A stretch of 64,000 nucleotides of DNA from contig CAKOYQ010000004.1 of the NCBI GenBank assembly GCA_934130935.1, positions 27,060-91,059 on the forward strand, given 5' to 3'. The position numbers were made by a program, and so were the translations under genes. The stretch comes from an uncultured Clostridia bacterium. Its GTDB lineage: Bacteria; Bacillota; Clostridia; TANB77; CAG-508. The notes beneath the pieces are model-generated. The model saw only the letters and a program-made list of their open reading frames with translations. It was not told where the DNA came from and did no database searches. Positions 9,013 to 30,442 of this stretch are shown piece after piece (the first letter of the stretch is position 1; each line of letters starts with the position of its first letter).

Positions 9013-9786
9013 TTATTTGCCCCTTTCCTTTGATTTTTTTACTTTTTCTTTATAATGTTTAGGCTCTTTATATCTCTTGCCTTTATGCTTATTTTTGTGT
9101 TTTTCTTTTGTGTTTTCTTTTTCTTTATAATGTTTTCCATTTGTTTGATTTTTCTCAAGCTGTCTTTTTATATAGTCCAGTTCTTTTAATACAGATGGCT
9201 TTTCAGTTTGCTTGTCTTTTTGCTTGGTATTTAAGGAATTCTCTAACTGATTCTTTTTTTCCGTCTTTTGTTTGTTATTACTGGGAATTTGCTTTTCCTC
9301 TTCCTTTGATGTTGGCATTATTTCATCAATAAAAATTTCATCTTCTGATTTCTCTGCTAATTTGGCTAATTTTTCTTCTTTGGCTTTTTCCATTTCTTCT
9401 TTGATAATTGTAACATCTTTAAAGTTAAATCTTTCTGCTATTCTGTTCATTTTCCCTGCATCTTCTTCTTTAATCATAATATCTACCATTCCATCAATTT
9501 TTGAATTGTTTTTATTAGCTAAAGCACAATATAAAATCCCATATTTTTTAGCCTCTTGAGAAAACTTTTTCAATTCATCTGCACTAATAGTAAAGATTTT
9601 TAAAGGTTTATTTGTTTTTAGCATATTGGTTAATCTTGTTTTTCCTCTTGTTGCTTGTTTTTCTTTTGACATAGCAATTAACATCATTGCAATATTTTTT
9701 GCAGCAGTTCCTGTAACTCTTAAAGACATTTCAACACCCTCTAAATAAATTTTAACAATTTCTTCAGCTGAGTCTGCAGTATTCAC
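9013..9786 (-). CDS. PcfB-like (DUF3801) conjugative element protein with a Lys/Glu-rich C-terminal tail
   Basis: N-terminal MNTADSAEEIVKIYLEGVEMSLRVTGTAAKNIAMMLIAM resembles the PcfB/DUF3801 proteins encoded next to relaxases in Firmicutes elements. The C-terminal 100 aa are low-complexity K/E-rich. Confidence 0.4.
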   Translation of the reverse strand: MNTADSAEEIVKIYLEGVEMSLRVTGTAAKNIAMMLIAMSKEKQATRGKTRLTNMLKTNKPLKIFTISADELKKFSQEAKKYGILYCALANKNNSKIDGMVDIMIKEEDAGKMNRIAERFNFKDVTIIKEEMEKAKEEKLAKLAEKSEDEIFIDEIMPTSKEEEKQIPSNNKQKTEKKNQLENSLNTKQKDKQTEKPSVLKELDYIKRQLEKNQTNGKHYKEKENTKEKHKNKHKGKRYKEPKHYKEKVKKSKERGK

Positions 9787-11135
9787 TTTTCTAGTTCTCC
9801 TTTCATTTTATTTTTTTCTTGACTTTGTTGCTGTTCCATTTCTTGCATTTCTTGTTTTATTTTTTGTGTTTGATTTTCAATTCTTTCAATACACACCACC
9901 TCCTGTTTTAAACATTTTATCTTGTTTGATATTTCTAAAATTTCATCACATAATGCTTGTCTAATTTCTGGAATATTTTCTTTTTGCCTTTTTCTACGAA
10001 GTTTATTTCTTTGTGCTATTTGATTTTTTAGTTCATCATTTACAAGATTTTTATATGAAAAAAGTTCCTTTGTAGTTTTTATCTTATTTCTACAAAGAAA
10101 CCTCATATCATCTGAAAATTCATCTAATTTTTTACTTTCTGCTCGTTGTTCTGGTGTTAGTCTATATCTTGTTTTTGTACTTTTGGGAAATACTTTTAAC
10201 ATATAGCAATAATAAAGATATAATTTATAAAGACTGCCTCTATCTATACTGAAAACTTTTGGTTTTGATTTTGAAGTATAGATTTTTGTCTCTCTATATT
10301 TCTCTGGAAATGGTATTCTAGTTGTTTCTGTATTCATAATTCTTTCAGTAATATTATTAATTGAATATTCTTCTCCAAAACTTCTTTCTATTCTGATATT
10401 TCTTTTATAAGGTGGTCTTACTAAACTTATTTTATTTGCACGAATTGTAATTGTATATCCCATTTTTTTCAAAATACTTTCAAAATTTTTATATGAATAT
10501 GCTTGTGCTATTGCAAAATCAACATCATCTTTTGTTGTAGTATAATAATCTGATTTTTGAATATAAGAATTATAATATTTTGTATAATCTATATTGTGTT
10601 TACCACATGGCTTTTCTTCTATGACGCTTAATCCATATTCTTTGCATAATTCATCTGAGATTTTTCTCATCATTGCATAATTTTCTCTATTGTTTATATA
10701 TTTTTTTCCGTCTACAAATGAAACAGAATTTACTACAAAATGATTATGAAAATGATTCGTATTAAGATGAGTTGATACTAATACCTCATATTTATCTCCC
10801 CATAATTCTTCAGCAAGTCTAACACCAATTTCGTGTGCTTGTTTAGCAGTTACCTCGCCTTCGACAAAAGATTGAAACCCATGATATGCAACAATGCCTT
10901 TCTCTTTTCCATAATATTTTTTTGTTTGTAACATATCTTGAACACTATCTGTTGTAGAACAATTAATTCCTGTAACATAGTATTGTTTTTCAGTTTTATA
11001 ATCTGCTGTTGCATATTCTATTGTATTATGGAGTGCTTTATACATTTCTTTATTTTCAGTTTTTTCTGAATTAGTTGTATAATTTATAACTTTGTCTATT
11101 CTATTTTGAATTTTCCATAAGCTCGTAGTTGCCAT
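9783..11135 (-). CDS. Relaxase / mobilization nuclease (MOBP-type, MobA/VirD2 superfamily)
   Basis: Histidine-triad motif HLNTNHFHNHFVVNSVS near the N-terminus, upstream Tyr-containing motifs, C-terminal coiled-coil. Directly follows the mobC-like gene and the oriT hairpins. Confidence 0.8.
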   Translation of the reverse strand: MATTSLWKIQNRIDKVINYTTNSEKTENKEMYKALHNTIEYATADYKTEKQYYVTGINCSTTDSVQDMLQTKKYYGKEKGIVAYHGFQSFVEGEVTAKQAHEIGVRLAEELWGDKYEVLVSTHLNTNHFHNHFVVNSVSFVDGKKYINNRENYAMMRKISDELCKEYGLSVIEEKPCGKHNIDYTKYYNSYIQKSDYYTTTKDDVDFAIAQAYSYKNFESILKKMGYTITIRANKISLVRPPYKRNIRIERSFGEEYSINNITERIMNTETTRIPFPEKYRETKIYTSKSKPKVFSIDRGSLYKLYLYYCYMLKVFPKSTKTRYRLTPEQRAESKKLDEFSDDMRFLCRNKIKTTKELFSYKNLVNDELKNQIAQRNKLRRKRQKENIPEIRQALCDEILEISNKIKCLKQEVVCIERIENQTQKIKQEMQEMEQQQSQEKNKMKGELEK

Positions 11136-15359: not shown

Positions 15360-18300
15360 TTACCTAATTGGGTCTTTATCATAGTCTTGACTTTTTAAAT
15401 TATCATCTTCCGACTTTTCATCATCTTCCATTATAATACTTTCTTTTTCATCTAGTTTTAATAATGCATTTACTCTATCTAATCTAGTTGATTTTTCTTT
15501 TAATTCATTTTCTTTATCAAATGGAATTTTTACATCAATTTTTGCATTTTCAAATTGCTTTTTAGTATTTTCTAATTCATCTTTATTTTCTTCAAGTTCT
15601 TTTCCAATATTAGATAAAGCATTATCAATTCTAGTTATATTTCCATAAATGTCATTTCCTAATGAAATTTTGTATTCAGATTTTCCTTTTAAAAACAACT
15701 CAAATTCTTGTCTTGCAACATTTATTTGTAATTCTAGTTTCATTCCTCTATATTCTCCTATTTCTTCTAATTCTGAATTTTCTTTTGTTTTACAAATTTC
15801 TAATATTGTTTTTCCTGCCATTTCTTTTTTATTGTATTGTTTGCCTTTTAATGTCATAGGAGAAAATTTTTCTTCATTTGCTATATTTGTATTATTTTTT
15901 ACTAAATTTAAATCTTTTTCGATGCCTAAAATCTTATTTTCTAATTCTTTTATTCTATTTGGATAATATTTTACTATCATATCTTCAAGTCTATATATTT
16001 CACTTAAATAACTTTGCTTTAATAATTTTAATTTTGCAACATCTGTATCTAATTGAGTTTTTTCTATAATCAAAGGATTTCCTGCTGCTAAAGCTTTTAT
16101 TTCAGCATAGCTTAATGCTTTTTCATCAACATCTTCCGCACTTCTGACAGGTGTTCTTGATGTCATTATTTGAGATATAAATTTCTGCTTTGTTTCCACT
16201 AACTGAAACAAGTATGCATCAAAAGTTTTTTCTGTTACATAAGTGTAGATATATACAACATCATTTTCATTTCCTTGTCTAGGTCCGTCTACCGATTTCT
16301 TTGAGTTAAATCTGAAGGTCGCCACGGACAGTCTAAATGATGAAGTGCAATTATTTTATTTTGGCAGTTTGTTCCTGCTCCCATTTTCGCAGTAGATCCC
16401 ATTAAAACTCTTATATTTCCAGCTCTTACTTTTGAAAATAATTCCTGTTTTTGAGTATCATTATTTGCATCATGTATAAATGCAATTTCGTTTTCTGGTA
16501 TTCCTTTTTCAATTAGCTTTCGTTTTAAATCTGTATATACATCTGTAAATTTCCATTCTTTTAGTTTCCATTTTCCGTCTACAAGTTCCATCTCATAAGG
16601 ATTATCCATTGTGCCTGTGTTTTTGGGTGTTGACAAATCACAAAATACTAATTGAGTTGATTTTTTTTCTGCAGTTTCTTTCCAAATTTTATAAATATTT
16701 TCTGCACACGCATTAACTTTACTATTTTCAAAGTCTGGTAACATATCATTTATTAATCTCTGGTCTAATGCTAATTTTCTTCCCTCATTAGTAATTTTAA
16801 GCATATTGTCATCTTTAGGGTTTACATCTCCCCTTTTTATATCTTCTGCTCTTTCTCCTAATTTTTCTACCATTTCTTCTTGAATTGAACTCGGTTTTAC
16901 AACTATCGTTTCAAACTTTGCTTCTGGGATAGGCAAATTCAAAGTATCTGATGTTTGTATATCAGCTACTTCTTTGAATAATGCCATAAGTTCTGGCAAA
17001 TTATAAAATTTTGCGAATCTTGTTTTTGTCCTATAACCTGTTCCGCGCGGGATTAAGTTCTAGTGCAGATACAGTCTTTCCAAATGTACTCGCCCAGCTA
17101 TCAAATTGTAATAGTCCACTTTTTTCTAATGTGTTATATTGCAAATAGCGTTGCATTGTATATAATTCTACCATTGAATTTGAAACAGGTGTACCAGTAG
17201 CAAACACAACACCTTTTCCACCTGTCAATTCATCTAAATATCTACATTTCATAAACAAATCAGAACTTTTTTGTGCTTCAGTTTGGGCTATTCCTCCAAC
17301 ATTACGCATTTTCGTGTATAAATATAGATTTTTAAAACCGATGCGCTTCATCAACAAATAATTTATCTGTTCCTAGTTGTTCAAATGTAACAACAGAATC
17401 TTTTCTTGAATTATCATTTAATTTTTTTAATTTTTCTTCAACTTTTTTCTTACTTTTCTCAAGTTGTTTTATAGAATAATACTCAGCACCATTTTTCTTT
17501 AAATCATCTATGCTCAATGTTAAAGCATCTATTTGTTGATTTAAAAAGTATGCTTGTCTTTCTTGTGATAATTGTATCTTTTCAAATTGAGAATGTCCCA
17601 TTATTATTGCATCATATTGTCCAGTTGATATCTTACTGCAAAATTTTTTTCTATTATTCATTGCAAAATCTTTTTTACTTGTTACTAATATATTGGCAGA
17701 TGGGTATAGTTGTAAAAATTCACTTGCAAATTGTTCAATAATGTGGTTTGGAACAACAAAAAGAGACTTATTCCAAAGTCCCAGTCTTTTTCCTTCCATT
17801 GCTGCAGCAACCATTTCAAATGTTTTTCCAGCTCCGTACTTCGTGAGCTAACAAAGTATTTCCTCCATAAAGTTGTCTTGCAATAGCATTTATTTGATGT
17901 TTTCTTAATGTTATTTCTGGATTCATTCCAACAAAAGTTATATATTGGCCATCATATTCTCTTGGTCTTATACAATTAAATTTATCATTATAAATTCTAA
18001 CCAAATGTTCTCTTCTTTGTTGGTCTTTCCAAATCCATTCTTCAAATTTTGTTTTTATTATTTCTTGTTTTCCCTGTGCTATTGCCGTTTCTTTTGCATT
18101 TAATTTTCTTTCTTCTTTACCATCTGAATTTATTACATTATCAAATATTTGCACATCTTTTAAATTTAATGTTTTTTCAATAATTTGGTAGGCATTAATT
18201 CTTCTTGTACCATAAGTTGTATTTACTCTGCTATTTTTCCAATCTATATTTTTTCCAGTAATATTCCAATCTGATGTATAATCGGAATAATTTACATTTA

Positions 18301-21300
18301 TGTCATTTCTATATTGCTGTGGTGTTTCTAATAATTCATACATAAATTGCTCTATATATTTTGTAGGAATCCATGTGCTACCTAGTCTTACACTTATTTC
18401 ACTAGCTGACAAATCTTTAATTTTTACACTTTCTAATCCTTTTACATTTACTTCATATTCTGAATTATTTTGAGCAAATTCTTTAGCAATTTTTAGTTTT
18501 TCTCTAACATTGCCACTCAAATATTCATCGGCTGTTACATATTTATCTAGCATAGGATCTTTATAAATACTACCCTCTAATTCTTTAATAAGTTGTTTTT
18601 CTGTTTTTCCTGTTAAATTGCACATATATTCTAGGTCAACACTTGCTTTTTCTGATATAGACGAAATTAAAGCGTCTATACTATTATCTGCTTTTGATAT
18701 TTTTATATGAGGTTGTATAGTTCTTTTTGAAAACATATCTGCTTTTCTAATAAAGTTTTTGTTTTCATCAATAATTTCTAATGAACAAAGTAAATAATAA
18801 CTATCATCATCTGAAAAAGCAATTTCGTTTCCTCTGCTGTTTATTAATCCATATTTTTTTGAAAAATTATCATATAGTCTATTTAGTTTCTGTTGCTCTG
18901 ATGTTATTTCAAAGTCTGGTGCATCATCTATTTGTAAATCTATTATTTTTCTAACACAATCACGAATTTCTATCATACCTTTTATTCTGTTAAGTGTTGT
19001 AATAGGTTTGTCTTGTAGATACATTAAGCTATTTTCTCTATAATAAACTTTATTATCTACTTCAGTATATGAAAAGTTTCTGACATCTGGTGTTGCTGGT
19101 ATTGATACTTCTTCATTGTCGCTTATTTCATCTATTTGAATATTATCTATTTCTGCATTTATACTCTCGATTGCATTATCTAATTGTGTTTCAAGTGTTT
19201 CACTATATATTGGACTACAAGTAGATTCTGGTCCAAATCTTCCAGATGTCATTTCCATTCTTCCTAAAATCATTTCTGGATGCTTAACAAAATAACTGTT
19301 CATTTCTATTCCATCTTGATTTTTGTCTAAATGTACCCATTCATCTTCAATATCAGTAATCTTATCTCTTTTCTTTAAAAATATAATATCAGATGTTACT
19401 ATTGTTCCTGCATTGGCTTTAAATGTATTGTTTGGTAGTCTAATTGCTCCAATTAATTCCGCTCTTTGACATATATATTTTCTTATTTTATCATTTTGTT
19501 TATCCATTGTACCTTTTGATGTTATAAAAGCAATTACTCCATTGGGTCTAACTTTATCTAATGTTTTTGCAAAAAAGTAATCGTGAATCAAAAAATTATT
19601 TCTATCATATCTCCTATCTGTAAGTTTGAAATCTCCAAACGGTACATTTCCTAGAGCTACATCAAAAAATGAGTCCGGCAGTTCTACTTCTTCATATCCT
19701 TTTACTGCTATTGTATTTTTTTGATATAATTGTCTTGCTATGTTTCCTGATATAGTGTCCAATTCTACTCCGTACATTTTACATTCTTTTAGTGTTTTTG
19801 GTATTCTACCAAAAAAGTTTCCTACTCCGGCAACTTGGTTCTAATATATTGCCCCTTTCAAGTCCCATTTGTTCTAATGCTTTATATATTGAACTTATTA
19901 CAATAGGCGGAGTATAAAAAGCAGTTAATGTAGATTGTCTAGCCTCTGTATATTCCTTTTCAGTTAGTAGCTTTTTTAGTTCATTATATTCTTCAGTCCA
20001 GTCATTATTTTGTGAATCAAAAACTTCTGCTAATCCTCCCCAACCAACATATTCTGCAAGTATTTTTTGTTCTTCTTTTGTAGCAAATCTATTTTCTTCA
20101 TCACACTTTTTTAATATTTTGATAGCTTCAATGTTTTTTTGAAATTTTTGCTTTTTAGTACCTACACCTAAATCAATATCTTCAATATGATAATTATTTC
20201 TTTCATCTAAAGGTATTTCTGGATGTAAATCAAAATATTCAATTCTGTTTCTTCTTTTCTGTTTTATATTAGCTTTTAGTGTTTTTTCTTCGTTATCTTT
20301 TATTGGTATATTTTCCTGTTTTACTTCTTCGCTATCATTTTTTGTATTTTCCTTTTCGATATCTAGTAGTCTTTTTCCAGTTCTTAATTTATCATTTGCA
20401 GGATTTTCTTTGATTTTTTTATCAAATTCTTTTCTAGACATCTCTTTTATAAACAAAGGAAATTTTGTGTCTGCCAATTTTACAATAGTATCACTAATTG
20501 ATGTTATTTCATATTCATCAATTCCAATGTAAACAATGTTTCCCACTTTAAATTCATAATATGGTAATCTTTTTTCAAGTTCATTTAATAACTCTTTAGC
20601 CTCTGGCAACATTTCATCATCTGACTCAAATTCTTCAATTGTTGTTTTGAAGAAATCGATATAATTTTTTATATTTATTTCATCTTCAATATCTGCTCTA
20701 ATTAATTCAATATTATCTTGTTCTGTATTACCTGTAGGAGAATTATCTAGATATGAATAAAGATCATAATCTTTTATAAAAGAATGTATTTTATCTGCTA
20801 ATTCATAATCTTCATCATTTAGCGCATCTTCTTTGGGATTATGATGTATTCCGTTTGCATCTAGCCAGTCATTGTATTCATCCTTTTCCTGTTCGCTCAA
20901 ATATCTATCTGTAGAAATTAATTCACTAATTCTTTTAGCAACTTGCGTCCATTTCAATAGATATTTTTTATTTGTTTTTGATTCTTCAAATGCTATTCCT
21001 TTGCTATCGTGATTTTGATATAAATTGCCTATTTCAATTGAATGACCACCTACTCCATACTCACTTTTTAGAAAATCAGCATTTTTTATATTTGTTTCTC
21101 CTTTTAAAAATTGCTGATATATTCTAAATTTACCATCTTGAAATCCACTGCCTCCTTGTAAATCATTATCAATAACTTCTTGAGGTACAAAAAAAGCAGG
21201 TGTATTTTCAACATCTGCTATATTCTGTTTTTGTTCATTTTCAGCTGGTATTTCAAAAACATCATTTATTTTATTTGTTTGAGCATAAGATATACAATAT

Positions 21301-22796
21301 TCAACAAAATTATTCCATTGCAAAAAGCATTTTTCTGTTCTGTTAAGGTAATTTCCTTTCCATAGATAAATACCATTATTATACAGCTTATATCCTACTC
21401 TATCATCATTTATAGTAAATTCATTATATTCTTTTCCAAAAGTTTCAAGTAAAAATTCTCTTGTTTTTTGATTATCTTCGACATTATTATTTAAAAATTC
21501 TACTATTTTTTCTTCATTCAATTTGACTTTTGGGGCATTCTTTATAATACTAATAATAGTATAATCATCACTAAATGATAATATATTGTCATTTTCATCA
21601 GTCCATTCTCCTAATTGAAAATCAATTCGTTCATTATTTGTTCTTCTGCTATCATCTTGTAGTTGTTCATTAGCCCTGTCCATTTCATTTGGTCTTTCAT
21701 CTTCAATTCTTCGTTTGTTCCATCTTGTATCGCCATTTTCTCCATTATCTTTTTTATCATTTTCGTTGCTTGGTCTTGTATTTGTGATAGGTGTAAAACT
21801 AATTCGTTGTTCATCACTAATATTGTGTATTCTGCTTTCTTCTGTGTTTTTAGATAATGTAGTCTCATTTTTGCGTATTTCCCATCTGGAATTTTTTCTC
21901 TCTCCATCACTAGATTTGGTATATTGTAATCTCCCATTTTCGTGTATGTTATTTTCTCCATAATCAATTCCTCCCTCAATTTTTTCTTTATCATTAGTAT
22001 AGTTTGAATTTTGATTTTTAACAAATGTGTGATTTTTGTTTTTTTCTTCAATTTGTAAATTTCTTATTGTTTTTGCAATTTCTCTTAATCCCATTTCTGC
22101 AATATCACTTACTGCTTGACCTAAAATTGTTATTAAATTTTCACTATTAAAATATTTTATATATTCAAATTCTTTTATATCAATTTTTTCTCTTGCATTA
22201 ATACCGCATCTTGTCATCATCATATAGGAAACACTCGCCCAAATACAAGGAACAAACAAACTATATAGTTCATCATCTGTATATTGTTCAAATTGAGTTT
22301 CTTTAATATATTTTTTTATAGATGACATATAATCTTGAATATTATCAGTTACCATATTATAAGCATTAAGAGTAATTGATGTAGAAAGTTCTGAATTTTC
22401 ACTTTCTGCTCCAAATGTAGTATCTAAAGTTTCTATAATGTCTTGTTTGTATTTTTCTTCAACACTCCATAATTTGTATGGTGTTCCCTTATAATTATGA
22501 GTATCAGATACATCAAAAACCAATTTAAAAGGATATTTACTATTTTCATCATTATCAAATATAAATATTCCATTTGCATTCTTGTTTACCCATCTTCTTA
22601 CTTTATTATTCCATGTTGCGATATCAGCACAAGCTGTTGCATCAGGTCTTTGTGCATAAATTAAAATTTGATCTGCAAAATCGTATTTAAAATTCCAACT
22701 ACTACTATCTAAAAATGAGAGCCAGTTTTCTTCTGTTTTAGTTATTTCATATAAGGTTTCTTTATACAATTTTCTTGTTTCTGTTATTCTTCCCAT
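15360..22796 (-). pseudogene. Giant polyvalent methyltransferase/SNF2-helicase protein (~2,480 aa if contiguous), broken into six ORFs by five or more frameshifts
   Basis: N6-adenine methyltransferase motifs: TAFYTPP, then motif I LEPS/AGVGNFFG split by a frameshift at ~19815, then motif IV GNVPFGDF. SNF2 helicase motifs: Walker A (LLAHEVG-GKT broken at 17814/17816), DEAH (LFVDEAHRF) and motif VI (LHHLDCPWRPSDLTQRNR), followed by a C-terminal coiled-coil. The ORFs are 19806..22796, 17816..19777, 17332..17814, 17031..17357, 16289..16999 and 15360..16325. Confidence 0.8.
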
Positions 22797-22819
22797 TTAA
22801 AACCTCCCTTCTTTATTAT

Positions 22820-23047
22820 TTAATTCATATCAATAAAAAAATTCCATAATCCTTTTGTTTCTATTGCATCTTGTATAATCCATATTGTTTCTATGTCTTT
22901 TAATGTTACGTTTGGTATATCTTCATTTTGATTTATCTTTTTCAATTCAGATACTTTCATATTCAAAACATCTTTTTCGTTTGCCATACCTATACTTTTT
23001 AATTTTTTTATTAAATTCTTTTTATTTTTAGAGCTATTTTCCGACAT
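22820..23047 (-). CDS. Hypothetical small protein (75 aa)
   Basis: ORF immediately upstream of the giant gene. Confidence 0.35.
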   Translation of the reverse strand: MSENSSKNKKNLIKKLKSIGMANEKDVLNMKVSELKKINQNEDIPNVTLKDIETIWIIQDAIETKGLWNFFIDMN

Positions 23048-23109
23048 TATGCACCTCTTTCACAAAAAATAACCTTACTTTAAGGTTTTACTTAAAATAA
23101 GGTTTTCTA

Positions 23110-23139
23110 TTGACTTTTTTATTAAATTTGTATTATAAT
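23110..23139 (+). promoter_or_regulatory. Near-consensus sigma-A promoter (TTGACT, 18-nt spacer, TATAAT) on the plus strand
   Basis: TTGACT at 23110-23115 and TATAAT at 23134-23139. It would drive a ~95-nt transcript ending at the intrinsic terminator at 23196-23241. Confidence 0.4.
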
Positions 23140-23145
23140 AGATAT

Positions 23146-23241
23146 AGGAAATGACAATTCCGTAAGATACGGTTTTGCCACGAAAGAGTTTTTTTATAAA
23201 CCATTCGTCTCAGCAAAAGCAGAATGGTTTATTTTTTATTT
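23146..23241 (+). ncRNA. Candidate small RNA convergent with the 37-aa peptide gene (antitoxin-RNA candidate)
   Basis: Bounded by the consensus promoter and a strong rho-independent terminator. Contains CGGTTTTGCCACG (23170-23182), which is repeated inverted at 23388-23400 inside the 5' UTR region of the peptide gene. Confidence 0.3.
23196..23241 (+). terminator. Rho-independent terminator (11-bp stem ATAAACCATTC/GAATGGTTTAT followed by a T-run)
   Basis: Perfect stem with a 15-nt loop, then TTTTTTATTTAT. Confidence 0.5.
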
Positions 23242-23349
23242 ATGTAGTTGCTTATCAACCCAGTTCTTATAAAGAACTGCAATTAAGGCAACGTTTAATG
23301 TTAAAGATAACATTAGCAATATTACAAAAAATAGTATTACTTTAACCAT
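23236..23349 (-). CDS. 37-aa hydrophobic peptide with a charged C-terminus (type I toxin-like), not in the supplied ORF track
   Basis: ATG at 23349-23347 is preceded by the strong SD AAAGGTGGTGA. Translation is MVKVILFFVILLMLSLTLNVALIAVLYKNWVDKQLHK, with a TAA stop at 23238-23236. It has a single TM helix and a basic/aromatic tail. Confidence 0.45.
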   Translation of the reverse strand: MVKVILFFVILLMLSLTLNVALIAVLYKNWVDKQLHK

Positions 23350-23475
23350 AAACATCACCACCTTTCCTACGATGTAATCGCAAAATTGGTGGCAAAACCG
23401 TTCCACTAATCATCAATTTCCTATGCAAATCATTCTACAATATTTTTTTAATTCTGTCTATAATATTTTTGATTT

Positions 23476-26400
23476 TTATTTATTTTTCTTTTTTCTACTT
23501 TTTTTCTTATAATCATAAATAAATGCTCCAGCAAGTGATATAGCAGATAATCCTCCAATTAAGGCAAATATTTCTGTATGTCTATTATCTCCTGTGTTTG
23601 GCACTTCAATTATATCATTTTCAAAATCAATACTATATATTGAATCATTTTCTTCTATTAAATTTCCATCTGCAAATACTCCATTGTCATTTATTTCAAT
23701 ATTTACTATTTTATTTGATAATTCATATCCCACTGGTGCTTTTATTTCTTTTATATAGTATTTTCCATATCGTAATTGATCAAATACAACATATCCATCA
23801 TTTTTATTTGATTTTACTTCTTTTATCAAATTATTACATTCTTCATCTTCATAGATTCCAAATACAAATTTTTCTTTTATTAATTCTTTGGTTTTACTAT
23901 CTATTTTATTTAGTTTGATATTTTTTAATATCGGCATATCTTTCATTTCAATTTTTTGAGTTTCTTTATCAGTTGTAACTACAAATTCAATTTTTTCAGT
24001 TGTTTCATATCCATAAGGTGCTGTTTTTTCAATCAATTCATATTTTTTGTTTTCTTCTAATCCTGTTACTTTGTGTGGCTCTTTTTCAGATACCCATTCA
24101 TCTATAATATTCCCATTTTCGTCAACTACCTGTAATTCTGCTCCCTCAATTTCATCTCCAGTTACTAAATCTGTTTTTGTTATTTCAACACTTTTATCTA
24201 TTAAAACAATTTCTTGTGTTTCTTTTCCGTAAGTTACTTCAAATTCAACATCTGTTGCAATAACAAATTCATCTGGAGCATATTCTTCGTGTAATATATA
24301 TTTTTCTCCTTCAGTTAGTCCTTTTATATTATGATTTTCCTTACCAGAAACCCATTCATCTATTACAGAACCGTCTTTATCAAACACTTTGATTTTTGCA
24401 CCATCAACTTCATTTCCTCCAATATCTTTTTTGGACATTGTAACTATTTTATCAATCATTTCTACCTTTTGAATTTCCTTTGTATTTTCAACTTTAAATT
24501 CTACCGAAGTTGCTTTTGTATATCCATCTGGTGCAATTTCTTCGTTTAATTTATATGTTTTTCCTACAATTAGTCCTTCAATTTTATGATTGTCTTTGCT
24601 TGATGTCCAAGTATCTATAATTTTTCCATTTTCATCTGTAACTGATAATTTTGCTCCTTCAAGTTCATCATCTCCAGTTATTGATTTTTTTGAAAATTCA
24701 AATATTGTTGTATCATTTGAGATATTTTCTTTATCTTCATATACTTTTCTTATTAAATCTTCTTGTTCAAATTTTATTTCATATTTTGTATCATTTAAAA
24801 CAAGTCCATCTAATGTTTTAGTTTCTTCAAGTTCATAAGTTCCCATTGGTAAATTTTCAACTTTTAGATTTCCATTTTTATTCAAATTATAAGTTCCTAT
24901 TTCTTGACCTTTTGAATAAATCTTACTTCCATCAGCATTATCAATAATATTTTCCTTTGCAATTAGTTTAAATTCTATACCAGACAAATCACTTGTGTCT
25001 ATTATTGATGTATCTATATTTTCTCTTAATGCTATTGTTTTGTCTATCATTAATGTTCCTGTTGGTTGTTCATTTTTTATTGTTACTTCTTTTATGAAAT
25101 CTTCATCTTGATCTTTATCATAATCTCTTATTCCTTTTATATCAAAAGTTACTGGTGTTTCTAATTGTAAAAATCCTTTTGGTGTGTTTATTTCATAAAT
25201 AGCATAACTTCCTACTGGTAGTTGTAAAGGTGTAATAACAGTACCTTTATCATCATTATTAGTAGTATAGCTCTTTTCTGGAATAATCATATTATCTGCA
25301 TTTGTTGTAAAAGAATTATAAGTTGTACTACCAATTTTTTGTGATACAGATTCTCCCTTTTTCCAAATAATTTTTCCTGTTGCTCTGTCATAAATATCTT
25401 TTGTTGCCTTTATTTCAAAAGTAGTGCTTGATAAAGTAACAATTTTATCTGTTTTTAAGTCTTTTTTTATTAATTTTATATAAGCCTCTAATTGCTCATT
25501 ATTTACTACTATATGTTTTGTCTTTTTTGCAACATCTTGTATTTCAGTTTCATCATCAGTAATTGAAAAATAAAAATCACTAGCACTTTCATAATCTTTA
25601 GGTGTATTTGATTCTTTTACAATGTATTTTCCATATGGTAGATTTTTTTGAGTATAGGCATTTCCATCTTTATCAGTTATTAAGACATCATAAGTTGGAG
25701 CAATTTTTTGTGCTTGTGCGACTCTTTTAGCATCTACTTTTACTTTATTTCCATTTTCATCTATACCATTCCAGATTTCCTCATAGCTATAACCTGCATC
25801 AAGTGCCTTTTCTACTGCACTATTTAGTTTAATTGTAAATTCAGCACCTGCTAATCCAGGAGTTTCTCCAGAATTTTCTTTTATTCCAGATTTAAAGATA
25901 TGAACTCCCATCTTTTTTACAAGTTCATTACTTGTTGTTGTATTTGTAATTACTTTAGTGTATTGATCTTTATATTCTAAATTTATTGAATATTCTGTTT
26001 TGTCTAGTAAATATCCTTTTGGTGCTACATCTTCTTTTACTAAATATTTTCCAAGTGGTAATTCTTCAATAGGAGTAGTTTTTCCATTTTTGTCCATTGT
26101 TCTAGTTGCTACTAAATCTCCTTTTGAATAATATTTTTTAGTTTTTGCCACATTATATATATCTTCGTCTGCATATACCTTATATACTGCATTTTCAAGA
26201 GTTGCATCTCCTTGAGCCATGCTTCCTGTTTCACTATCTTTTTTAACTATTTCAATAGTTCCTGTTGGTTCTGTATTTATAACACCCTCTATTTTTAATT
26301 CAACAACTGGTGTTGTAGAATTTACATATTTTATATCGGCATTAAATATAGTTTCATTTAATAAATATCCTTTTGGCGCTTTAGTTTCATAAACAATATA

Positions 26401-28704: not shown

Positions 28705-29658
28705 TTATCTATCATACTTTTTTAATTCTTTTTCTTTTTGCCATTTTAATTGATAATTTTCTAAAAGTTTTACAATTATCTTTTGCATTTCGGTTGGTGT
28801 ATATTCTTTTGGAAAATACCCTTTTACTTTATCTACACTAAATTTGATGTTTTCTTTTTGATTTGGCTTTTCTTCTGATAGTATTCTATCTATATCGTCA
28901 TCTGTTAAATTTCCATCTGCACTTAATTTTTTTAATTCTCTTGCTTGTGGATGTGATGGAAATACCTCATTATATTCCATTACTTCAAAGACATATTCCT
29001 GCTCTGATTTTGTTAAATATGATATTTCAACTGCTGGTCTCAATTTCATTTTTTCATCATCAACTAATTGCAATAGTTCTGGTATCAGTTCGGTTAGTCT
29101 AATGTATCTTCTGATTTGGTCTTGGCTTTCTCCCATTTCTTCTCCTAAAATTTCTCTTGAAGTTTTTCCTTCTAACTTCTGTGCCGTTGGCACAGAAGTT
29201 GACAAGTCATTTCTTCTTCCTTGTCTTTTCATTGCCTCTAACTTCATTTTATAGGCAAAAGCTTTTTCACTTGGCAATATTCTTTCCCTCTGTTTATTAC
29301 TATCTACCATATAAATAATAGCATCTTCATCTGACATATCTCTAACTATTGCAGGTATTTCTTTTATTCCTGCAAGTTCACAAGCCCTTTTTCTTCTGTG
29401 ACCTGAAATCATTTCATAAGTTCCATCTTCTTTAGGTCTTACTATAACTGGGTGTATTACACCATTTTCTTTAATGTTTTCGACAAAATCTTCCATTTCT
29501 TCATTTTCTTTTACTTGATAAGGATGATTTGGAAAATTAGAAATAGAAGAAACTGCTATTTTTTCTACTTTTTCTAACTTCTCGGCATCTCTTTCTTCTT
29601 GTGTTGTAAAGAAATCATCTATCTTGGGAAAGTGCATTTTTTCTTCTTTCTCTTTCAT
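28705..29658 (-). CDS. parB: ParB/Spo0J-family partition protein
   Basis: ParB N-terminal box MISGHRRKRACELAGIKEIPAIV with an HTH; overlaps parA as in par operons. Confidence 0.8.
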   Translation of the reverse strand: MKEKEEKMHFPKIDDFFTTQEERDAEKLEKVEKIAVSSISNFPNHPYQVKENEEMEDFVENIKENGVIHPVIVRPKEDGTYEMISGHRRKRACELAGIKEIPAIVRDMSDEDAIIYMVDSNKQRERILPSEKAFAYKMKLEAMKRQGRRNDLSTSVPTAQKLEGKTSREILGEEMGESQDQIRRYIRLTELIPELLQLVDDEKMKLRPAVEISYLTKSEQEYVFEVMEYNEVFPSHPQARELKKLSADGNLTDDDIDRILSEEKPNQKENIKFSVDKVKGYFPKEYTPTEMQKIIVKLLENYQLKWQKEKELKKYDR

Positions 29659-30442
29659 TATCTTTCAAAACCTCCTTCGCAAATAATGAATAAGCCTCTG
29701 TGACCTTACTATTTTTGTCATAGGCTATTATACTTTTTCCTTTTGATGTAGTTTCTGCTGCTTTAATAGCAAATGGAATATTAGTATCATAGATTTTCAC
29801 AACATTACCAAAATTATTTATGAGTTCTTCCTTTATAGCACTCGGCAATTTTGTTCTACTATCAACCATAGTCATTAGAATACCACCAACTTTTAACTCT
29901 TTATTTAGCTGTCTTTTTACTTTTGCAACAATATTTAATAAATTTCCCATTCCTCTTGCTGATAAATACTGACTTTGTACTGGTATAATTACTTCATTGC
30001 TACAAGCTAAAGCATTTGTAGTTATCATATTTAATGACGGCATACAATCAATAATTATAAAGTCATATTTATCTTTCAAGTCCTTTAAGCAACCATCTAG
30101 TGCATATTCCCTTTTCATTGCATTCATAAGTTCAGACTCAACCATTGCTAATCCTAAATTTGACGGTATTAAATCGATATTTTCTTTATGATGTAATATT
30201 GATTCTTCTGCATTTATATTTTCATCTTTAATATATCGGTCTATTAGTGTTCCTAATGTTACTGGTATATTGTCTTCATCATAAAATCCCATACAAGTTG
30301 TAAGATTTGCTTGTGGATCTGCGTCTACTACTAAAACTTTTTTGCCATTATTAGCTAGAGATACTCCTAGACTAAAAGTTGTTGTTGTTTTTCCTACTCC
30401 ACCTTTTTGATTTGCTATGCTAATTACTTTGCATTTTGACAT
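29615..30442 (-). CDS. parA: ParA/Soj-family partition ATPase
   Basis: Deviant Walker A KVISIANQKGGVGKTTT. Confidence 0.85.
   Translation of the reverse strand: MSKCKVISIANQKGGVGKTTTTFSLGVSLANNGKKVLVVDADPQANLTTCMGFYDEDNIPVTLGTLIDRYIKDENINAEESILHHKENIDLIPSNLGLAMVESELMNAMKREYALDGCLKDLKDKYDFIIIDCMPSLNMITTNALACSNEVIIPVQSQYLSARGMGNLLNIVAKVKRQLNKELKVGGILMTMVDSRTKLPSAIKEELINNFGNVVKIYDTNIPFAIKAAETTSKGKSIIAYDKNSKVTEAYSLFAKEVLKDNERERRKNALSQDR

Follow-up and report, generated by a model that had tools for sequence, protein, structure and literature searches.

A putative type I toxin–antitoxin-like cassette with a predicted mRNA fold-back and a 3′ antisense RNA in a conjugative element of an uncultured Clostridia bacterium

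We analyzed a 64,000-nt stretch of DNA (referred to below as the window) from an uncultured Clostridia bacterium (contig CAKOYQ010000004.1), which carries genes of a conjugative element. Our results suggest that the ~350 bases at window positions 23110–23460 are probably a self-contained type I toxin–antitoxin (TA)-like cassette of a new family, in which the toxin role of the encoded peptide is presumed. As judged from sequence comparison and RNA folding, the module combines a fold-back of the peptide mRNA like that of hok with a 3′ antisense small RNA (sRNA) aimed at the 3′ strand of this fold-back (Table 1). An earlier reading of the same DNA (the original prediction) had proposed a type I TA locus at this place; its sequence-level predictions hold across more than 300 loci, which gives it support in silico. 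The limits of the module were set from alignments, since conservation ends at both −35 boxes: the conserved block runs from the −35 box of the peptide promoter to the −35 box of the sRNA promoter and is flanked by unrelated sequences.

A scan of one genome per species revealed the module in 311 loci in species-representative metagenome-assembled genomes (MAGs) of gut Firmicutes, and the best 80 of the 311 were examined in their genomes. All 80 retrieved loci came from gut MAGs, with human, mouse, rabbit, ruminant and chicken as the sources, and were labeled as uncultured Clostridium, Clostridia or Firmicutes CAG bins, along with a few Bacilli, Anaeroplasma, Tenericutes and Treponema. Several MAGs contributed two loci each; locus L003 has two copies and L086 carries a second copy in tandem. 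The contexts are unrelated and both chromosomal and mobile, e.g., downstream of mfd, near rpmB/serS/nth, upstream of valS or in other mobile elements. A protein search with the open reading frame (ORF), lengthened upstream to reach the 40-aa minimum of the cluster search, returned 52 protein clusters, nearly all of them metagenomic. Many of the clustered proteins were mis-called, with in-frame upstream extensions that are actually the conserved 5′ untranslated region (UTR). A full hidden Markov model search of 1.84 billion representatives gave only 26 clusters, among them a divergent subfamily with peptides such as MLEIITLFFIAFMLSITLNLALLCILYIQWVNKQIK, which keep the motif …(I/L)N(V/L)ALL..(I/L)Y..W.NK. 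Four chromosomal loci (L019, L025, L033, and L045; alignment A3) have unrelated sequence in place of the peptide promoter and the mRNA 5′ arm but still contain the ORF and the hairpin together with an intact sRNA gene; the toxin genes there seem to be decaying or silenced, with the antitoxin preserved.

The peptide gene was described in the original prediction as a 37-aa ORF with a Shine–Dalgarno sequence (SD), a single helix and a charged tail. We found it at that place and intact in all 83 loci aligned (58 distinct nucleotide sequences, 35 proteins). The ORF encodes MVKVILFFVILLMLSLTLNVALIAVLYKNWVDKQLHK and is preceded by AGGTGGTG; a start at the alternative ATG, at 23355, would yield 39 aa. 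The start methionine of the 37-aa ORF is invariant, while the upstream ATG is GTG in two members, and the divergent subfamily has the downstream ATG only. Summed minor-allele frequencies at codon positions 1, 2, and 3 were 1.17, 0.64, and 2.33. Changes in the N-terminal half are conservative (I, L, V, F), residues from L14 onward are almost invariant, and the C-terminal half (LSLTLNVAL..VLYKNWVDKQLHK) is nearly so. AlphaFold, run with the family alignment, modeled one continuous helix over residues 2–37 of the 39-residue product of the upstream ATG, with a predicted local distance difference test (pLDDT) value of 95.4. As in type I toxins, the predicted product is a small (<60 aa) hydrophobic transmembrane peptide under purifying selection with a polar/charged C-terminus (YKNWVDKQLHK), and we presume that it is a single-helix membrane toxin. 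The Fst/Hok-like architecture claimed earlier was recovered as far as the small single-helix peptide and its charged tail are concerned; by sequence, however, the peptide is neither Fst nor Hok, as Pfam gave no Fst-family match at E ≤ 1 and no Hok_Gef match. No match to the peptide was obtained in NCBIfam or PHROGs, none to the module in plasmid and phage collections (searched as DNA and with tblastn), and the peptide motifs were not found in a literature motif search. Rfam (E ≤ 10) gave chance matches only and no par RNA II. One of these, to 'rpsL sRNA' (24 bits, vs. a gathering score of 37), corresponded to the ORF-internal hairpin only and was discarded.

For the opposite strand, the original prediction had called a near-consensus promoter and a strong intrinsic terminator that would delimit a ~95-nt RNA antisense to the 3′ region of the peptide mRNA. 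The promoter held up well: it was the top promoter-like site in the 2.5 kb scanned, in a region where such sites were overall no more numerous than in shuffles, and TTGAC(T/A)-N17/18-TATAAT recurs at this position, 4 nt ahead of ATAGGAAAT, in 75 of 77 related loci. The equivalent peptide promoters (74 related loci) consist of TTGCTT, TAGACA or TTGATT, N17, and TATACT or TAGAAT, are located 7 nt upstream of ATAGGAAAT, and are consistently weaker than the sRNA promoter. A strong antisense and a weak sense promoter is the usual arrangement in type I TA systems. Upstream of the peptide-promoter −35 box, at a distance of ~10–25 nt, chromosomal copies share ACGAAAATTTGTTT (L003:5870-5900, L003:2720-2750, L004:5870-5900, and L001:5870-5890), a possible UP element or regulator site; the window lacks this stretch and has the 3′ end of the adhesin gene there instead.

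The antisense RNA was recovered as a putative convergent gene with a predicted product of ~93 nt, but its overlap with the peptide mRNA comprises the stop codon and the 3′ UTR only, rather than the coding 3′ region. In the window its minimum free energy (MFE) structure (−19.7 kcal/mol, z −2.8) contains a free 5′ tail, a stem-loop, SL1 (CCGUA-AGA-UACGG, 23160–23172), a linker with UUUUGCC and a terminator hairpin. SL1 shows compensatory variants (CCAC/GUGG, CCGUA/UACGG, UUGCA/UGCAA, and CGCA/UGCG). The covariance model of the sRNA (R1) detected one significant site in the window, at 23146–23240 (66.7 bits, E 3e-9). This model, built from the RNAalifold consensus, captured 3 pairs only because the terminator variants misalign; it was used for detection, and the covariation counts for the terminator were taken from alignment A3. 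The terminator stem is wholly swapped across the family (CUCACAUCU/AGAUGUGAG, AAACCAUUC/GAAUGGUUU, GACACAUUGC/GCAAUGUGUC, and CUACACAU/AUGUGUAG), with at least three unrelated stem sequences and both-sided changes in 15–22 sequences at 6 of 8 pairs. The terminator claimed earlier is therefore conserved with compensatory replacement of the whole stem; 'strong' does not describe it, since in the window the 11-bp stem is A/U-rich with a large loop and was left unflagged by a simple terminator scan.

To describe the structure of the peptide mRNA, 73 distinct modules were folded with RNAalifold. The consensus contained an anti-SD helix, an inner hairpin, a pairing of the start region, two further ORF hairpins and the terminator. 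The SD core was paired in 53 of 56 distinct 5′ UTR variants folded, and the inner hairpin holds its position in these variants despite unrelated sequences. Compensatory changes support the SD-sequestering hairpin: anti-SD CCACC faces SD GGUGG in the main family, CCUUC faces GGAGG in L089, CCCUC faces GGGGG in L094, CACCC faces GGGUGG in L040 with an insertion on both sides, and UUACCACC faces GGUGGUAA in L069. In addition, the start-codon region GUUUAUGGUUAAAG pairs in the predicted folds with ORF codons ~16–20, CUUUAACAUUAAAC (window 23340-23353 and 23293-23306). Both segments are nearly invariant, synonymous sites included, which suggests a second translational lock; such pairing would also explain the extreme nucleotide conservation in the middle of the ORF. 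In these predicted folds, as in toxin mRNAs of type I systems, translation would be blocked by SD/anti-SD and 5′–3′ pairing.

The 5′–3′ component is formed by an inverted repeat. The 12-mer CGGTTTTGCCAC is present at 23170–23181 (plus strand) and 23389–23400 (minus strand), and these were the sole two matches in 64 kb, with 0.04 expected. A repeat finder reported a 16-nt pair (94%; 23169–23184 and 23386–23401) and, as a second pair, ATAGGAAAT beside each −10 box. The 13-nt inverted repeats noted in the original prediction are thus present and inverted as described, but they belong to a larger, two-part repeat with arms of ~36 and ~40 nt. In the window the duplex of the two arms has a predicted energy of −40.4 kcal/mol, and the 281-nt long form of the mRNA folds with −94.4 kcal/mol (z −9.6). 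Across the family alignment the 32-pair fold-back had 94.9% of its cells paired vs. 39–52% in controls with a slid partner; 7 pairs (34 cells) were altered on both sides, and 0 of 500 shuffles reached the observed pairing, number of double-change cells or covariation score. The fold-back was part of the MFE structure of all 68 long mRNAs. For 15 divergent loci the arm duplexes reached −32 to −47 kcal/mol vs. −11 to −14 kcal/mol for shuffled arms, despite differing arm sequences (e.g., AUAGAAAGUAAG with CUUACUUUCUAU and UUAAUUGCC with GGCAAUUGC), and L086 shows a one-base deletion in both arms. The fbi-like 5′–3′ closure proposed originally is thereby backed by ~32 bp with covariation and, as described below, a strand-specific G·U signature. 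Covariation among homologous loci, put forward with that prediction as a check, gave compensatory support for the SD hairpin, the fold-back and the terminator alike.

As an inverted DNA repeat alone gives equal complementarity on both strands, strand specificity was tested. Paired cells amounted to 94.9% on the peptide strand and 82.8% on the opposite strand. Non-Watson-Crick cells comprised 298 G·U (19 pair types) and 18 A·C (5 types), and in 15 of 15 divergent loci the duplex was stronger on the peptide strand by 4–16 kcal/mol. The G·U bias and the stronger peptide-strand duplexes suggest that the fold-back is selected at the RNA level on the peptide mRNA, which would have to extend through the sRNA gene. 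These data bear directly on another explanation, namely that the repeat acts as DNA (operators for a host regulator, or ends of an element like a miniature inverted-repeat transposable element, MITE) and owes its similarity to gene conversion, with no RNA fold-back. The arms do begin 4–7 nt past a −10 box, so that each spans a transcription start region, the module occupies many unrelated sites, and co-varying arms, including the paired deletion of L086, would also be expected from homogenisation. On the other hand, on the mRNA strand the arms differ by A→G or C→U changes, as expected for RNA pairing and as the excess of G·U over A·C reflects, and a repeat acting as DNA would not account for the stronger duplexes on the mRNA strand. 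Moreover, conservation continues ~35 nt past each arm, promoters included, so the arms are not element termini, and no transposase or regulator gene is associated. Strand asymmetry and conservation past the arms led us to reject the MITE/terminal-inverted-repeat version, and we regard a purely DNA-level role as very improbable.

The original prediction had also named the repeat as a pairing target of the sRNA. The sequences agree with this: from the stop codon up to and including the 3′ arm, the sRNA perfectly complements the 3′ UTR of the peptide mRNA. As an exact complement of the 3′ arm, the sRNA nearly repeats the mRNA 5′ arm in its own 5′ third. The mRNA 5′ arm differs from it by A→G and C→U changes, in which pairing is kept by G·U wobble where the sRNA has G-C or A-U. 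For the same 40 nt, the predicted duplex of the sRNA with the 3′ arm is ~20 kcal/mol more stable than that of the 5′ arm with the 3′ arm in all 69 loci compared (window values, −67.9 vs. −39.7 kcal/mol). As the sRNA complements the 3′ strand of the fold-back, it would compete with the 5′ end of the mRNA, and the two interactions would be mutually exclusive. We searched for a trans pairing site of sRNA and mRNA outside the overlap and detected none above shuffles (z +0.8). A role of the sRNA as an anti-SD mimic that pairs with the SD in trans was rejected, as only GGUUUUGCC is common and its CCACC part is not conserved in the sRNA. Tentatively, and with more doubt than confidence, we propose that the sRNA mimics the 5′ end of the toxin mRNA and unzips the panhandle by out-competing the 5′ arm for the 3′-UTR strand, and that the 5′ arm is kept weaker than the sRNA by G·U pairs and in most family members doubles as a self-antiterminator that permits read-through of the shared terminator. 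We know of no type I TA family described with such regulation.

Whether the mRNA reaches the 3′ arm depends on the hairpin that follows the stop codon. In the window the peptide strand continues after this hairpin with AUAAAAAAACUC and has no U tract, so that the peptide mRNA is expected to read through to a terminator-like hairpin at 23104..23071. The latter was detected by the scan, is common to the related locus L005 and lies outside the conserved module; it is where the peptide mRNA and the adhesin transcript likely end in the window element. In type A members (e.g., L029:1618-1660, not the window) the 5′ arm CAGAUGUGGUUUU nearly matches AGAUGUGAGUUUU, which forms the descending arm of the shared terminator hairpin, and could for this reason pair with the ascending arm. 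Complementarity of the 5′ arm to the ascending arm was found in 53 of 69 loci (−17.3 kcal/mol, z −4.9) and is weak in the window variant. This suggests that the 5′ arm may act as a self-antiterminator in type A members.

Several observations weigh against the reading of the module as a TA cassette with an antisense-controlled fold-back. Mean column identity in the family alignment is ~81%, and since the sequences are closely related, the covariation rests on few independent events; taken by itself, the co-variation of the arms could also reflect gene conversion between inverted repeats. Most family members have 4–5 U after the hairpin on the mRNA strand, and some of their peptide transcripts may thus stop at the hairpin, short of the 3′ arm. 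A conserved downstream terminator for the long mRNA was found in 15 of 72 loci vs. 9 of 72 in the control, i.e., not above background. By partition function (68 loci), the unpaired probability of the SD was ~0.25 in the short mRNA and likewise in the long form, whether or not its 3′ arm was blocked; with SD accessibility unchanged, no activation step is visible in these models. The idea that the fold-back frees the SD by taking UUGCC from the anti-SD was rejected on the same values. Finally, no homology of the peptide to any proven toxin was detected in Pfam, NCBIfam or PHROGs.

Some of these points would fit a peptide mRNA that ends at the post-stop hairpin, used as a bidirectional terminator as in pAD1 par; the overlap would then consist of terminator and stop codon, and the 5′ arm would serve as a stabiliser or self-antiterminator. 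On the mRNA strand, the type A hairpin lies between an A-run and UUUU(C), which together with the background level of downstream terminators and the 53 of 69 loci with a 5′ arm complementary to the ascending arm speaks for such a short transcript. In the window, however, AUAAAAAAACUC after the hairpin makes termination unlikely, the strand-specific complementarity of the 5′ and 3′ arms would be left unexplained, and antiterminator pairing, if real, would favor read-through to the 3′ arm. We consider the short transcript unlikely and retain the long mRNA with its predicted fold-back.

To place the module among known systems, we compared its layout with that of characterized type I loci. The Gram-positive layout has an antisense RNA on the 3′ side, SD/anti-SD pairing, terminator stem-loops and 5′–3′ interactions (T1TAdb; PMC8594479), and the predicted features of the module follow this layout. 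With hok/sok of R1 and AapA1/IsoA1 of Helicobacter pylori it shares a small membrane peptide, a mobile element, 5′–3′ closure and an upstream anti-SD. The full-length hok mRNA is rendered inert and stable by tac/fbi 5′–3′ closure and the ucb anti-SD (PMC9841398). Both a tac/fbi-type fold-back and a ucb-type anti-SD are predicted here, which is a likeness of mechanism and not homology: unlike in Hok/Sok, there is no Hok_Gef match and no conserved overlapping mok-like upstream frame, and the hosts are Firmicutes. Furthermore, the target of Sok and IsoA is the 5′ leader of an mRNA processed at its 3′ end, whereas the sRNA of the module is antisense to the 3′ UTR and complements the fbi-like strand. 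With its predicted convergent 3′ antisense RNA, the module resembles bsrG/SR4 and txpA/RatA of Bacillus subtilis and convergent type I loci of Clostridioides difficile such as CD0956.2/RCd10, which reside in prophages or mobile elements. In the B. subtilis pairs the convergent antisense RNA covers the 3′ end of the toxin mRNA and leads to RNase III decay (PMC3834814, PMC6563280, PMC8594479); such duplex decay has been demonstrated in both pairs, and for C. difficile systems it has been proposed (PMC3834814, PMC6563280). The bsrG SD lies in a double-stranded region that is lengthened by SR4 binding (PMC3834814, PMC6563280, PMC8594479). Unlike in TxpA/RatA and BsrG, where the antisense RNA overlaps the ORF according to T1TAdb, the sRNA of the module overlaps the stop codon only, and no peptide or RNA sequence similarity to TxpA/RatA, BsrG/SR4 or the C. 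difficile toxins was found in Pfam, NCBIfam, PHROGs or Rfam. We are not aware of any report of a 5′–3′ fold-back in competition with the antitoxin in bsrG/SR4, txpA/RatA or the convergent type I systems of C. difficile. The par locus (fst/RNA II) of Enterococcus faecalis plasmid pAD1 also resembles the module, with convergent genes, one hairpin as shared terminator, repeats at the 5′ ends of both RNAs, a single-helix toxin of ~33–37 aa and translation-limiting 5′ structure (PMC8594479). The par repeats are direct, which gives complementary 5′ regions that interact outside the overlap, whereas those of the module are inverted; for this reason its two 5′ regions are alike and would compete for the mRNA 3′ UTR. 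Because it differs from Fst/par, Hok/Sok, TxpA, BsrG and the C. difficile toxins, we filed the module as a new family.

We propose that the cassette would work as follows. The weak promoter would give rise to a peptide mRNA locked by the anti-SD, the start-region pairing and the ~32-bp fold-back, and this mRNA would reach the 3′-UTR arm since no U tract follows the post-stop hairpin in the peptide-strand sequence. The fold-back and the anti-SD would maintain a stable, translationally inert pool of mRNA, similarly to full-length hok mRNA (PMC9841398). From the convergent promoter of consensus strength the ~93-nt sRNA would be made, which would displace the 5′ arm from the 3′ arm and open the panhandle, and the resulting sRNA:mRNA duplex of ~90 bp would be subject to decay by RNase III and RNase J or Y. 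Upon loss of the element, and with it of the short-lived sRNA, leftover mRNA would be activated and the peptide would damage the membrane; such activity after loss would stabilise the conjugative element. In this scheme we infer the transcripts and their ends, the acting ribonucleases, the opening of the SD and the toxicity of the peptide.

Table 1. Positions of the predicted cassette features and selected genes in the window, and states of the cassette slot in related elements.
Feature	Position	Strand	Remarks
sRNA promoter, TTGACT-N18-TATAAT	23110–23139	plus	11/12 consensus positions
Predicted ~93-nt antisense sRNA, candidate antitoxin	23146..23238	plus	promoter, fold, covariance model
Hairpin ATAAACCATTC/GAATGGTTTAT, predicted sRNA intrinsic terminator	23196–23232	both	then TTTTTTATTT; T-run 23233–23238
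Peptide mRNA promoter, TAGACA-N17-TAGAAT	23460..23432	minus	10/12 consensus positions; predicted start ~23424
5′ arm AUAGGAAAUUGAUGAUUAGUGGAACGGUUUUGCCAC	23424..23389	minus	predicted to pair with 3′ arm; role like tac side of hok tac/fbi
SD-sequestering hairpin (predicted)	23395..23355	minus	anti-SD UUGCCACC (23395..23388) : SD GGUGGUGA (23362..23355); inner hairpin 23385..23365
37-aa peptide ORF, including stop	23349..23236	minus	intact in 83/83 loci; third-position-biased variation
3′ arm GUGGCAAAACCGUAUCUUACGGAAUUGUCAUUUCCUAU, in peptide mRNA 3′ UTR	23184..23144	minus	predicted to pair with 5′ arm; exact complement of sRNA 5′ region
Terminator-like hairpin and T-run	23104..23071	minus	scan; common to L005; outside conserved module
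MobA/VirD2-type relaxase	9783–11135
Thioester/SpaA-repeat adhesin, 1431 aa	23476–27771
ParA and ParB	28705–30442
Slot empty, terminator hairpin only	L104–L106 (e.g., L105:1900-2000)
Slot with 80-aa + 107-aa ParE_toxin pair (ParDE-like type II) only	L107:1161-2000
Slot with module, then ParDE pair	L102 (840-2000), L103
Slot with module alone	window, L005, L006, L100

The window carries relaxase, ParA/ParB, methylase-protein and adhesin genes on one strand, and housekeeping genes follow from ~36 kb. The 1431-aa surface protein beside the module has an N-terminal thioester match (E 0.0028, below the Pfam cut-off), ten repeats of the SpaA/prealbumin fold and a C-terminal VPNTG sorting signal; it is likely a covalent-binding adhesin of the conjugative element. 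On the other side, a 996-aa ORF (19806..22796) without Pfam match ends abruptly with …EPSCRSRKLFW and, after a gap of 28 nt, gives way to a 653-aa ORF with an Eco57I-type methylase domain (window 17816-22796). The two may represent one split 'polyvalent' protein; the split may be genuine, as the 996-aa product is also called in L101–L103. Among the close relatives, L006 (Firmicutes bacterium CAG:321) matches the window with 99.4% identity over 3.1 kb, including the stretch with the hairpin at 23104..23071, and L005 is a rearranged relative of the window element. L100, a 63-kb contig filed in IMG/VR as 'viral' (UViG_3300045988_168928), shows 97.6% identity over 6.1 kb (window 20239-26355). Since the element carries genes for an LPxTG-type adhesin, ParA/ParB and a relaxase in place of phage genes, L100 may represent a conjugative or mobilisable element that has been classified as viral.

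More distant relatives of the element were sought with the gene of 75 aa located just downstream of the module (22820–23047). The slot between the adhesin gene and this gene, 23048-23475 in the window, was found in four states (Table 1), which points to a TA hot spot of this conjugative-element family. Independent gain and loss of the cassette, together with a slot shared with a type II TA pair, would fit an addiction or stabilisation module. Conservation of the ORF at the same position in related elements, on which the original prediction had made itself dependent, was also seen, as close relatives carry the module in the same slot. In the empty slot of L105 (1950-1985) the lower strand of the terminator hairpin AAAAGGTGGCAAAACTGCCACCTTTTTG contains GTTTTGCCACC, an 11-mer identical to part of the module 5′ UTR, GGTTTTGCCACC; this could be chance or a trace of cassette insertion.

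The context also helps in weighing whether the peptide is a toxin at all. It might instead be a regulated small membrane protein, such as an accessory subunit or modulator of a complex, whose level is tuned by antisense RNA and mRNA structure. The nearly invariant C-terminal half may mean that the peptide has a particular protein partner and does not simply damage membranes, and the lack of homology to known toxins would be in keeping with this. Yet in the contexts examined no neighbor gene that could encode such a partner is conserved across loci, and the module is multi-copy, in places tandem, and patchily distributed. Its position in the same slot as, or beside, a ParDE pair, the triple translational lock and the pairing of a strong antisense with a weak sense promoter likewise speak against a non-toxin role, which we find quite improbable next to a toxin kept in check by its sRNA.

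If our interpretation is true, gene callers mostly overlook or over-extend the peptide ORF of a family whose alignment offers natural compensatory variants for three helices. Because it combines a hok-like lock with the Gram-positive 3′-antisense layout, the module would be a usable model for competition between an antisense RNA and a fold-back, and the cassette is potentially usable as a stabilisation part or as a scaffold for RNA devices. It would serve as a marker of a TA hot spot in a family of conjugative elements classified as viral in IMG/VR, and would provide a well-defined type I TA family for the uncultured low-GC gut Firmicutes, a large group without a described one.

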